Assembly: GCA_021107855.1 (NCBI GenBank)
Contig: JAIORZ010000002.1
Coordinates: 315,316 to 379,315, forward strand
Length of the DNA: 64,000 nucleotides
DNA from: an archaeon
Lineage (GTDB): Archaea; Nanobdellota; Nanobdellia; Pacearchaeales; GW2011-AR1
Reading direction: 5' to 3'
Notes under the pieces: model-generated
What the model saw: only the letters and a program-made list of their open reading frames with translations
Told to the model about the DNA's origin: nothing
The model's database searches: none
Made by a program: the position numbers and the translations under genes
Shown here: positions 1,185 through 53,841 of the stretch, in pieces
Layout of the letters: every line of letters starts with the position of its first letter
Position numbering within the stretch: the stretch's first letter is position 1

Positions 1185-1855
1185 AATACCTAGTTTTTGA
1201 CGCAGGACCGATTATCTCATTGACACTAAACGGAATGCTACCCGTTATCGAAAAGTTAAAAAAAGTTTTCGGCGGGGAATTCATCCTGACTCCGGATGTT
1301 AGACGAGAGATAGTTGAAAGACCGATGAAAATTAAAAAATTTAAGTTGGAAGCACTACAAGTTACCGATTTAATTGAAAAAGGAATATTCAAATTATCGG
1401 GGGATATCGTCTCGGACCAGAAGTTAGGCAAAGAGATGAAAAAAGTTTTGAAGAATGCGAATGGAGTTTTGAAATCCACGGCGACTGGAGAAAAAATTAA
1501 GATTATCCATGATGGCGAAGCTTCGTGTTTGGCTTTTGTTAATTTGTGTAAGGCGGATGCTGTTATTGTTATTGATGAGAGGACGACTCGTATGTTGACG
1601 GAAGCGCCGGAGAATTTGGAGACAATGATGGAAAGGAAGTTGCACACGCCACTTGATCCGAATTTGAGTTTGCTTGAGGGGATGAAGAACTTTAAGTTCA
1701 TTCGGTCGGCGGAGTTGTTGTATATTGCATATAAGAAAGATTTGATTGGGGTTAAGAAAGAAAAAGAGTTATTGGATGCCTTGCTTTATGGGGTGAAGTT
1801 TAAGGGTTGTGCAATTTCTTCGGGTGAGATTGAAGAGATGAAGCGGTTGGCATAG
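1181..1855 (+). CDS. PIN-domain protein (DUF3368-like)
   Basis: LVFDAGPII, VRREIVE, HDGEASCL and VIDE provide the four conserved acidic PIN positions. Confidence 0.75.
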   Translation: MKYLVFDAGPIISLTLNGMLPVIEKLKKVFGGEFILTPDVRREIVERPMKIKKFKLEALQVTDLIEKGIFKLSGDIVSDQKLGKEMKKVLKNANGVLKSTATGEKIKIIHDGEASCLAFVNLCKADAVIVIDERTTRMLTEAPENLETMMERKLHTPLDPNLSLLEGMKNFKFIRSAELLYIAYKKDLIGVKKEKELLDALLYGVKFKGCAISSGEIEEMKRLA

Positions 1856-2131
1856 CCGAATTAAGATTAGCCCATATTCCATCTATTTTTTCTCCTATAT
1901 CTTTAACTTCTTCTCTCTGTGGGATGCTCAAGGTGGCAGGATTAATTTAATCATATATTTCCTGGAGTCTTGAAACGAACATTTCATGATGTCTATCTTC
2001 TATTTTTGGAGGGAGTTGGTTTAATAATGAATAAATTTCTGAAACTTGGGTGAGATAGTTATCTTTCATGTATTTATAAAATATTTTTATTTATAAAAAT
2101 TTATATACTCTCCTTTTGATAAATTGTTATT

Positions 2132-2202
2132 GGGTTCATCGGATAATGTTAGTCTACTCGGCTCCAGCCCGGGGGGTGGGGGTTAAATTCCTCCTGAGCC
2201 CA
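2132..2202 (+). tRNA. tRNA-Trp (CCA), intron-less, CCA end not encoded
   Basis: Acceptor GGGTTCA/TGAGCCC, D stem GGAT/GTCT, anticodon stem CTCGG/CCGGG with loop CT-CCA-GC, T stem GGGGG/CCTCC; TTTATATA box about 30 nt upstream. Confidence 0.88.
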
Positions 2203-2224
2203 TTTTCGAATTTAACACACACCA

Positions 2225-2320
2225 GGTGGGGGTGAGTGATTCGCTTTGAGAAAAACTAGTTCAAATTAATAATTATTTTTCGAAATGCAAATTACGAATG
2301 AAGAATTCCTCCTGAGCTCA
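2225..2320 (+). repeat. Interrupted duplicate of the tRNA-Trp 3' part with hairpin insert
   Basis: GGTGGGGGT (2225-2233) = tRNA 2175-2183; AATTCCTCCTGAGCTCA (2304-2320) = tRNA 2186-2202 with 1 mismatch; about 70-nt imperfect hairpin between them. Confidence 0.85.
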
Positions 2321-2374
2321 TCTAAATTTTGGACTTGTCAATACTTTTATAAATAATGTCTTCGTGCTGTAACC

Positions 2375-2866
2375 ATGGTGAAGAAAGTAGTGAAAAAGAA
2401 AGTAGTGACAGAGACTGTTCACGAGGATGGAACGAAGAAAACTGTCGTAAAAGAACATTCCCCCAAAAATACTATTAAAAAGAAGAAAGTAGTGGATATT
2501 AAAAAGAAAAGGATGACGGCCAAGGAAAGAGAGGAATTATTGGTTGAAAATTTTGTTGGGCTACAACATGCAATGACTAATATGTCGATTAAGTTTGGGG
2601 CATTGTCTGATAATATTTCAAAGCTATTGCAAATTTTTGAAGAAAGCGCGAAGAATTTTATGTCTGGAGGAAAGTCCGACGATACGGAAATGTTAGGCAA
2701 GATTAATTCGTTGTTAGCTCAAAACAAGACGATTGCGTCGGGTTTGGTTTTAATGGAGGGGAAGTTAAGGGGACGGAACGAGGAGCCGCAGACAGCGCAG
2801 CCTAATATGATGCAGCCTAGACCGCAGATTCCTCCTATGAGACCGAAACCACTTCCAAGTATCTAA
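2375..2866 (+). CDS. Hypothetical protein (Lys-rich N-terminus, coiled coil, Pro-rich tail)
   Basis: 163-aa ORF, TTTATAAA upstream, coupled to the next gene. Confidence 0.7.
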   Translation: MVKKVVKKKVVTETVHEDGTKKTVVKEHSPKNTIKKKKVVDIKKKRMTAKEREELLVENFVGLQHAMTNMSIKFGALSDNISKLLQIFEESAKNFMSGGKSDDTEMLGKINSLLAQNKTIASGLVLMEGKLRGRNEEPQTAQPNMMQPRPQIPPMRPKPLPSI

Positions 2867-53615: not shown

Positions 53616-53660
53616 ACTCCCCACAAACTTTTTTAAATCCCAAAATCCTCGCTTCAACAT

Positions 53661-53732
53661 GCGTGGGTAGTTTAGTGGTTAGAATCTGTCGTTGCCAACG
53701 ATGGGACCGGGGTTCAAGTCCCCGCTCGCGCA
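53661..53732 (+). tRNA. tRNA-Gly (GCC)
   Basis: Acceptor GCGTGGG/CTCGCGC, anticodon loop TT-GCC-AA, T arm CGGGG-TTCAAGT-CCCCG; TTTTTAAA box upstream. Confidence 0.92.
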
Positions 53733-53752
53733 TTTGTTTCTTGGGAATTGAA

Positions 53753-53841
53753 GTTCAAGTCCGAGCAATTAGGTCTTCGAGTAAAATAAAATATTCGAAG
53801 ACATGATTGTGAGTAGCTCGCGCATTTGTTTCTTGGGAATT
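53753..53841 (+). repeat. Interrupted duplicate of the tRNA-Gly 3' part with hairpin insert
   Basis: GTTCAAGTCC (53753-53762) = 53712-53721; 26-nt perfect repeat 53816-53841 = 53724-53749; 53-nt hairpin between them. Confidence 0.9.

Follow-up and report, generated by a model that had tools for sequence, protein, structure and literature searches.

A palindromic element of about 63 base pairs inside duplicated tRNA gene ends in a genus of Pacearchaeales archaea

Why should an intact tRNA gene be followed by a second copy of its own 3' end, broken in two, with a small hairpin in the gap? The question is raised by a tRNA-Trp gene in a stretch of 64,000 nucleotides (nt) of archaeal DNA from the order Pacearchaeales (contig JAIORZ010000002.1 of assembly GCA_021107855.1), here called the window. 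A sequence-only reading of the window had described the tRNA, the direct copies of its 3' end and the hairpin between them, and this description stands as far as it went; it had missed an inverted copy of part of the tRNA at 2208-2223, and also that the insert is a repeated and conserved sequence. We refer to the insert as element E, and to E with the tRNA-derived copies around it as a unit. The source assembly (G000) comprises 936 kb in 14 contigs, has about 38% G+C and is estimated to be 85% complete; the runs containing the window sequence are marine-sediment metagenomes. The tRNA-Trp locus is laid out as follows.

2132..2202, + strand: tRNA-Trp(CCA), intact, without an encoded CCA (ARAGORN 2131-2203; Rfam RF00005, 47.2 bits at 2132-2202)
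2203..2207, + strand: short T-rich spacer with which the native trailer begins (from the sequence)
2208..2223, + strand: inverted copy of tRNA positions 2175-2190, that is, variable loop, T-stem 5' strand and T-loop (repeat search: 16 nt, 88%)
2225..2233, + strand: direct copy of tRNA positions 2175-2183 (variable loop and T-stem 5' strand), forming the left-hand piece of the split pseudo-3'-end (exact 9-mer)
2233..2299, + strand: hairpin element E, type A (nhmmer profile match C2:317547-317612; alignment; covariation)
2300-2303, + strand: junction filler between E and the right-hand tRNA copy
2304..2320, + strand: direct copy of tRNA positions 2186-2202 (remainder of the T-loop, the 3' strands of T-stem and acceptor, and the discriminator; 16 of 17 identical)

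This arrangement is real and not a product of chance. The 17-mer at the tRNA-Trp 3' end (2186-2202) recurs at 2304-2320 with one mismatch, which makes two matches in the 64-kb window where 0.01 were expected, and two or more were seen in none of 100 shuffles of the window. The 9-mer 2175-2183 recurs exactly at 2225-2233 (two matches against 0.17 expected; at least two in 1 of 100 shuffles). The split downstream copy that had been read from the letters alone is thus beyond chance in both of its parts. The repeat starts are 118 nt apart. The inverted copy crosses the point of E insertion, and both of its mismatches are C-to-A changes opposite the T-stem. That the tRNA and its copy are not an artefact of a single data set was confirmed with assembled contigs rather than raw reads: in run X2, which comes from a different sample within the study of the probable source, one contig of 20,167 nt spans window positions 1800-2700 with two substitutions (1964 and 2066) and no indel. 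The contigs of run X3 end at 2225 and 2341, which are both edges of the unit, and the coverage of run X4 is limited to 2434-2664.

E is about 63-67 nt long and forms an imperfect-palindrome hairpin, in which the outer stem is followed by an internal loop containing tandem G.A, then by the A/T inner stem and a terminal loop that varies in length and sequence. Its ends, 5'-TGAG and CGAAT-3', were fixed by two 98%-identical copies in genome G053 that lie in unrelated flanks. There are two subtypes, A and B; type B has the ends and outer stem of type A and a different inner part. As in MITEs (miniature inverted-repeat transposable elements), the hairpin arms act as terminal inverted repeats of a sequence dispersed in multiple copies. 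The evidence for the hairpin, which had been proposed from the window alone, is divided by method. Single-sequence folding of the window insert and of the whole unit was no better than that of shuffles (RNA z -0.46; DNA z 0.01, -0.12), but a conserved hairpin is strongly supported by covariation. The consensus fold of 23 aligned type-A copies has 16 pairs, with compensatory double changes in 11 of them. Pairing was found in 96.2% of all cells of this alignment compared with 85.2% in shuffles, none of 500 shuffles being as high, and controls in which the partner was slid reached at most 62.6%.

The invariant positions of E in the type-A alignment are mostly non-Watson-Crick. A YGAR tetranucleotide stands at each end of E and a second pair of them beside the inner stem, which would give tandem G.A pairs in the folded top strand, and one C.A mismatch is kept. 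The paired columns of 70 distinct copies hold 952 Watson-Crick, 55 G.U, 34 A.C and 9 other combinations; the G.U and A.C counts give no clear sign of which strand folds, or of an RNA rather than a DNA fold. Readings of the internal loops as a K-turn, box C/D, hammerhead or integron attC motif were tried by eye against consensus motifs and rejected, as the strands do not fit. At the Rfam gathering threshold, only tRNA scored above threshold in the window; a search of 2100-2400 with E-values up to 10 gave nothing credible, and six other loci gave no matches with E-values up to 0.01.

Recurrence at other tRNAs, which had been named as a check, was found both in this genome and in its relatives. 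In a search of 41 related genomes with positions 2100-2340, the tRNA was matched and the insert alone was matched separately at many other places. At 20 such insert-match loci, the insert almost always lay downstream, by 20-50 nt, of an intact gene for another tRNA, and the tRNAs concerned were those for Thr, Lys, Val, Leu, Arg, Gln, Gly, Asn, Glu and Phe. In this genome, nhmmer found three type-A copies (after Trp, Arg-TCT and Val-TAC) and seven of type B (at Gln-TTG, Cys, Met, Tyr and Glu-TTC, and two at Arg-TCG). All 10 copies lie at most 170 nt from a tRNA called by ARAGORN, and partial copies of this kind accompany 13 of the 39 ARAGORN tRNA calls in the genome. By BLAST, 32 of the genus's 49 genomes contain type-A E, at up to 11 matches each, and none of 16 genomes from other genera of the same order does. 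A consensus pattern matched 47 stretches in 25 assemblies of a 185,579-species collection. All of these were archaeal metagenome-assembled genomes titled Woese-, Pace- or Nanoarchaeota, except for one 1.7-kb contig binned as a bacterium; the same pattern gave no matches in viral contigs.

For the analysis of layout, 92 E copies were collected in sampled regions (76 type A and 16 type B), and 72 of these have an ARAGORN tRNA within 200 nt. Loci L013-L031 and L036-L075 were picked solely for their match to E; L002, L003, L006 and L012 had been matched by the query containing the tRNA, and eight regions of this genome were added. Dropped were L001 (the window itself), L017 (identical to L016), the Trp loci without E (L004, L005, L007-L011 and L032) and L033-L035. 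Removal of two partial matches left 90 full-length copies.

The usual order of a unit is the intact gene, a short spacer (0-35 nt in units other than that of the window), often an inverted copy of the target that straddles the insertion point, a direct copy up to the insertion point, E, and a direct copy on to the end of the gene. A direct same-strand copy of the right flank of E was found elsewhere in the locus for 75 of the 90 copies. In 67 of these 75, with E read in its plus orientation, it lies to the left, in a sense tRNA (35 copies), an antisense tRNA (7) or an earlier array unit or open reading frame (ORF; 25), and in the remaining 8 it lies to the right, mostly in array neighbours. 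The sense-tRNA units are downstream of the gene and the antisense-tRNA units are on its 5' side. Insertion points are few in kind. Among the 35 sense units, the duplicated tRNA end measures 17-19 nt in 21, which places the split in the T-loop, and 10-13 nt in 12, which places it at the junction of the T-stem 3' strand and the acceptor; two are outliers, and in 10 units the repeat extends at least 3 nt beyond the tRNA end. The seven antisense units are split 12, 12, 27, 30, 30, 54 and 55 nt from the tRNA 5' end. Rarer split sites lie in the D-arm or anticodon-arm region and occasionally at an ORF 3' end, and the duplication varies in length from about 10 to more than 100 nt.

An inverted target copy over the split point was significant in 28 of 57 testable units (p<=0.05, 200 shuffles each), a lower bound since in some units the inverted piece lies inside the matched repeat. 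By eye, this piece has decayed exactly opposite the T-stem 5' strand and has retained the complement of the T-loop; at both the Trp and the Lys units a run of five C has become CACAC.

A few loci differ from this scheme or resemble it with other sequences. At L024 (G005:C3) and L067 (G043:C15), the right-hand copies look like tRNA 3' ends and an intact tRNA could not be recognised within 260-300 nt upstream; both may be tRNA genes in a highly disrupted state. In L042 (G049:C4, 257-322) and L057 (G024:C14, 257-323), E stands in a conserved non-tRNA context common to two species. In one of them a TATA-like box lies upstream; the flanks are not duplicated, and nothing in Rfam matches. This context could be a source gene or a different target. 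Hairpins unrelated to E, some of them G+C-rich, take its place within duplicated tRNA 3' ends at L037 (G049:C8) and L008 (G015) and, in G000, on C1 after tRNA-Gln-TTG, tRNA-Arg-TCT and tRNA-Met(151348) and on C2 after tRNA-Tyr, so that the layout is not bound to one hairpin family.

Several units reveal at what level the arrangement arose. At L047, an antisense tRNA-Leu-TAA has the entire layout, inverted piece included, on its promoter side; the split is in the D-arm, and the repeat takes in the promoter region. In this genome, pseudo-copies lie upstream of tRNA-Tyr, tRNA-Glu-TTC and tRNA-Arg-TCG, and the pseudo-copy at tRNA-Arg-TCG is complete, has a promoter of its own and carries E in its T-loop (the promoters, by eye, are of the archaeal TATA type). 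The layout also occurs at three ORF 3' ends, namely the orthologous L025 and L072 (G024 and G045) and L054 (G043); at L025 and L072 the inverted copy begins directly after the stop codon, and then come the direct copy, E and, in diverged form, the final ~27 nt of the ORF once more. Since units are found on the antisense or 5' side of tRNA genes and at ORF ends, and since E may be reversed, the units were formed at the DNA level rather than by tRNA transcription or maturation.

The hint of the sequence-only reading that the downstream copy might provide a spliced or alternative tRNA 3' half finds no support in the same occurrences, nor in a search for the bulge-helix-bulge (BHB) motif of archaeal introns. 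A scan with a custom script and relaxed rules found no BHB at the window unit in either orientation. Over 180 unit-orientations it gave 39 matches at scattered offsets within a ±10-nt window, compared with consistent offsets in all four ARAGORN-called introns of G000 that served as positive controls. An archaeal BHB intron was thus rejected, there being no consistent BHB and an intact tRNA copy always adjacent, so that the working gene is uninterrupted. Reverse transcription of mature tRNA was also rejected. The copies stop at the discriminator without CCA and are thus derived from genes rather than from mature tRNA, and no reverse transcriptase (PF00078) was found in G000.

Loci that are filled in some genomes and empty in others bear on whether E moves. 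The orthologous tRNA-Trp locus, with its conserved downstream promoter and gene, is filled with type A in G000 and G005 and with type B in G002 and G013, and it is empty in G001, G018, G007 and G023. In two further genomes (L065 and L066), E lies on the other side of tRNA-Trp. The near-identical copies in G053 differ by 1 nt in 63 and are placed after tRNA-Thr-CGT and, reversed, after tRNA-Arg-TCG, with unrelated flanks. Arrays of two or three units in tandem occur at L014, L031, L043, L047 and L067, and at L037 a second hairpin family is nested in the right-hand copy of an E unit. The filled and empty Trp loci, the arrays, the nesting and the 98%-identical pair fit a mobile element.

The best-supported statement is a descriptive one: E is a discrete palindromic element of ~63 bp, almost exclusive to copies of tRNA genes, with a polar local duplication of the target that spares one gene copy. 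As to how this came about, we give an even chance to the proposal that E is a non-autonomous mobile DNA element whose insertion and target duplication are one replication- or repair-type template-switch event. Under this proposal, E would land at few discrete points of a tRNA gene, mostly the T-loop or the junction of T-stem 3' strand and acceptor, and its placement would be coupled to local duplication of the target such that one copy stays intact and the other, partial or full, carries E. Insertion and duplication would occur in a single template-switching event and not by cut-and-paste, with a fold-back giving the inverted piece and re-copying of the target giving the direct copies. The inverted piece may be a by-product that was later degraded opposite the T-stem, sparing the tRNA from disturbance, and the hairpin may be kept by selection or by gene conversion among copies. 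Two simpler routes were rejected. A pre-existing trailer hairpin as the general target is contradicted by tRNAs without units, whose trailers lack the inverted copy. Campbell-type homologous integration of a minicircle accounts for the repeats, but not for flanks that are specific to each new tRNA.

A number of observations weigh against a mobile element of this kind. No known mechanism predicts the layout, inverted piece included, and our reconstruction needs ad hoc steps. A flank duplication was undetected in 15 of the 90 full-length copies, among them some with right copies of 7 nt, some with E reversed, and the two in conserved non-tRNA context (L042 and L057). Polarity has exceptions: about 8 units carry E reversed in otherwise identical flanks, and in G053 a single intact tRNA-Pro stands between an upstream full copy, in which E is in sense orientation, and a downstream E-bearing partial copy. 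Against a purely selfish element in particular, units at a given tRNA are often common to several species: among 62 labelled copies, the nearest neighbour was at a tRNA for the same amino acid in another genome for 13 and in the same genome for 4. The orthologous Trp units of G000 and G005 differ by compensatory stem changes, and the persistence of orthologous units with such changes is as compatible with constraint in place, meaning a host function, as with a selfish element, or more so. The near-identical copies, and the occurrence of type A or type B at orthologous Trp units, could reflect gene conversion or cassette replacement instead of new insertion. No excised form, joint or empty allele was seen in the contigs of the runs.

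A further objection is that no transposase or recombinase is linked to E. Reverse transcriptase (PF00078), Y1 transposase (PF01797), TnpB (PF07282) and IS110 transposase (PF01548) were not found in the 85%-complete G000, which was the one genome of the genus covered by the PF01797 and PF07282 search. G000 encodes three tyrosine recombinases (PF00589), none of them near a unit; one, of 424 amino acids, directly follows a tRNA cluster on C3 and has relatives in 7 of 49 genomes of the genus, compared with 32 of 49 for E. There are also a serine recombinase on C3 and three DDE transposase genes (C1:84434, C8 and C10), and no DDE transposase was found next to E among the 92 copies. A role for Cas1, as in casposons, was considered and rejected since the sole Cas1 of G000 belongs to a type I-E cas operon on a small (9.5-kb) contig.

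Two regions seen in this survey are of separate interest. The stretch C3:24300-32600 (L035, L131) holds a cluster of tRNA-Gly, tRNA-Leu and tRNA-Arg, then the 424-residue tyrosine recombinase and, 6 kb on, the serine recombinase, and it is preceded by an ORF that by eye resembles an HNH endonuclease (no Pfam match at E 0.001). The stretch is probably a mobile element that has integrated, and a second copy of the tRNA-Arg-CCT 3' end was not found in the assembly. Contig C4 (9.6 kb) carries a type I-E cas operon that looks complete by ORF sizes and the Cas1 match. On C5 (9.2 kb) there are genes for tRNA-Ile and tRNA-Ala in which CCA is encoded, as is seen in a bacterial rRNA spacer. Both may be foreign sequence within the archaeal bin.

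The strongest competitor, which we consider unlikely though not markedly so, is that E serves the host as a protein-binding or a terminator or insulator hairpin, of DNA or RNA, at tRNA genes and a few highly expressed ORF ends, and that it was spread by local duplication and gene conversion, with the duplicated gene ends as by-products. The conserved hairpin, with compensatory changes even between orthologous units, would be expected of it, as would the invariant non-Watson-Crick G.A positions and loop-adjacent motifs, the T-runs on both strands of E, its intergenic position and the units common to species at the same tRNA (the 13 of 62 nearest neighbours). It is harder to reconcile with the many tRNAs, and the 17 of 49 genomes of the genus, that lack E by BLAST search, or with the empty state of 4 of the 8 orthologous Trp loci examined. 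The split gene copies are left unexplained, wobble pairs show no strand asymmetry (55 G.U and 34 A.C) and there is no Rfam family. The two explanations overlap, since a domesticated mobile element would look alike.

Less probable still, and in our judgement improbable, is that the units are scars of integrases. Viruses or plasmids would have integrated at the tRNA 3' end (attL/attR) and then been deleted almost entirely, leaving E as a conserved arm together with a palindromic footprint. Partial copies of tRNA genes from integration are common in archaea, as stated in passages of PMC9897764. The 424-residue recombinase that directly follows the C3 tRNA cluster is in keeping with such a history. 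So may be the insertion points, which include the T-loop and anticodon arm, reportedly (Williams 2002) classical integrase sublocations. Integrase crossovers in tRNA genes lie at the anticodon loop, T-loop or 3' end. But E stands between two halves of the repeat and not beside an uninterrupted one, the same ~63 bp would have to persist at more than 20 different tRNAs, and ORF ends, like the 5' or antisense side of tRNA genes, show the layout too. The integrase relatives are in far fewer genomes than E, as counted above, and E was not found in viral contigs.

That the unit is a device at the RNA level, with an intron-bearing or alternative tRNA 3' half or with E as a small RNA excised from the trailer, appears very unlikely. 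E lies mostly downstream on the tRNA strand (the 35 sense units), where co-transcription is possible, the acceptor strand of the copy follows the tRNA of its own species in several species, and DPANN archaea are reported to possess splicing endonucleases of broad specificity (PMC5829648). Opposed to these points are the BHB results, with none at the window unit and 39 inconsistent matches in 180 against four of four controls, the intact gene that is always adjacent, and the occurrence of E reversed, antisense and at ORF ends. In addition, the copy in G013 mismatches its own tRNA, no conserved box C/D-like motifs were seen by eye, and no Rfam match was obtained. An assembly artefact or chance similarity, of which the X3 contigs ending at both unit edges might be a sign, is hardly conceivable given a spanning contig from another sample, orthologous units in three other species and the expectation of 0.01 for the 17-mer.

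Beyond the template-switch proposal, we entertain a bolder one, possible but doubtful, in which E represents a hitherto unrecognised mode of DNA movement: a hairpin without a protein would copy itself into spots of dyad symmetry within essential single-copy genes. Template switching in replication or repair would automatically re-create an intact copy at each landing, a 'safe-landing' duplication with a fold-back inverted footprint, and full copies bearing E would feed the emergence of non-canonical introns and split tRNAs. If this were true, the full-length, promoter-bearing copies with E in the T-loop (tRNA-Arg-TCG here; tRNA-Pro and tRNA-Trp in G053) would be raw material once the intact copy is lost.

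The window contains a second tRNA gene, for tRNA-Gly(GCC), that is followed by a unit of the same kind, with a layout like that of the Trp unit. Except for the tRNA itself, the features were read by eye.

53660..53733, + strand: tRNA-Gly(GCC) (ARAGORN, Rfam)
53734..53841, + strand: second unit, of Trp-like layout
53743-53752, + strand: inverted piece, within the spacer
53753-53762, + strand: direct copy of T-loop and T-stem
53763-53815, + strand: divergent E-like hairpin, missed by the nhmmer profiles
53816-53825, + strand: copy of the last 10 nt of tRNA-Gly
53826-53841, + strand: repeated 16-nt trailer (the same as 53734-53749)

Some further observations concern the tRNA-Trp locus. The window gene appears to be the sole tRNA-Trp of the assembly. 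ARAGORN calls a second tRNA-Trp(CCA) at C3:24793-24881, with 89 nt and a long variable arm. By eye, a tRNA-Gly(TCC) whose 16-nt intron follows position 37 is the better reading of this sequence, and if so the window gene is the only tRNA-Trp. Passages of a preprint on complete Nanobdellota genomes (10.64898/2026.05.13.725050) report Trp and Val tRNAs as undetected in some orders. The ORF at 2375-2866, after the Trp unit, matches no Pfam family and is kept beside tRNA-Trp across the genus; it opens with short direct repeats (window 2380-2508) that code for a lysine/valine-rich stretch. At L003 (G013:C22), the acceptor stem of the tRNA-Trp contains two wobble pairs and ARAGORN does not call this tRNA, and the downstream split copy is identical to 17 nt of the G023 tRNA-Trp 3' end, not to that of its own tRNA.

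How do the units compare with known systems? The sequence-only reading had set the Trp unit apart from an ordinary integrase att duplication on the grounds that the copy is split and the cargo is a hairpin alone, and we agree. Like the att duplications of tyrosine recombinases, E units consist of an intact tRNA followed by a partial direct 3' copy, have split points that include the T-loop and anticodon arm, and can form tandem arrays at one tRNA. Unlike them, E units have a repeat that is itself interrupted, as in 75 of 90 copies, by a gene-less 'element' of 63 bp, and they show an inverted target copy, sites at ORF ends and on the 5' side of tRNAs, and no co-occurring integrase. Att duplications bracket a gene-carrying element with its integrase, whereas the neighbours of the Trp unit are housekeeping genes, namely a GNAT acetyltransferase, DUF357 and an amino-acid kinase, together with unnamed ORFs.

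Small palindromic mobile repeats are a familiar class that includes MITEs, repetitive extragenic palindromic sequences (REP) and REPINs, Rickettsia palindromic elements, yeast mitochondrial GC clusters and double-hairpin elements. E resembles MITEs and other such repeats in being a short, multi-copy, non-coding hairpin with discrete ends, presence/absence polymorphism and nesting. Unlike MITEs, E is found almost exclusively at tRNA genes, has a long and variable duplication instead of a short, fixed target-site duplication, and sits asymmetrically inside it, with the left copy separated by spacer and inverted piece, the latter being an addition. For palindrome-associated elements derived from IS200/IS605 (PATE), or for REP with their associated tyrosine transposase (RAYT), a Y1 (HUH) transposase or RAYT, or TnpB, is expected, and PF01797 and PF07282 were among the families not found in the 85%-complete G000.

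Non-canonical archaeal tRNA introns, as in Thermoproteales, share with E the presence of related short sequences at several non-canonical tRNA positions, the T-loop among them, and for these too a link of mobile DNA to disrupted tRNA genes and transposition among tRNA genes have been proposed. E differs in that there is no flanking BHB and in that it lies in a redundant copy beside an intact gene. Integron attC sites, like E, are imperfect hairpins of 60-70 nt that form arrays; both have a conserved base, are unpaired in an internal region and vary in the terminal loop. In contrast to attC, successive copies of E have no cassette ORFs between them and no integron integrase context, and the conserved attC core was not seen. 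Target duplication is not a feature of integrons.

The units thus fail defining features of att duplications, MITEs and BHB introns. Among described phenomena, the nearest are partial tRNA copies left by integration (PMC9897764) and the disruption of tRNA by a recombinase-bearing element (PMC3293823), and the nearest kind of element is the MITE-like palindromic repeat. No description of units such as these was found in main texts of the literature (supplements lying outside this search), including passages of PMC9897764 and of the Nanobdellota preprint. E looks like an undescribed small mobile element of a known general kind, the non-autonomous mobile repeat, in one DPANN genus, and there is a real chance that its mechanism is new.

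For annotation, the units yield pseudo-tRNA fragments, break assemblies and mislead tRNA finders. An example is the ARAGORN call of a 'tRNA-Asp with a 300-nt intron' at C2:135250-135642 of G000, a false call over an E-bearing pseudo-copy of tRNA-Tyr and the real tRNA-Tyr.

For tRNA gene evolution, the finding touches an old open question, namely the origin of archaeal tRNA genes that are split, permuted or interrupted at unusual places. Mobile DNA is a proposed cause, for which, to our knowledge, there is little direct evidence. One genus here offers dozens of natural events in which the same element stands in the T-loop, T-stem, D-arm or anticodon arm of many tRNA genes. With intact and interrupted copies adjacent, orthologous loci filled or empty, and near-identical copies that are apparently recent, the matter is testable by comparative and population genomics. 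Should duplication prove to be an inherent part of insertion, a selfish element would have here a new strategy for entering the essential genes of a minimal genome while the host survives.

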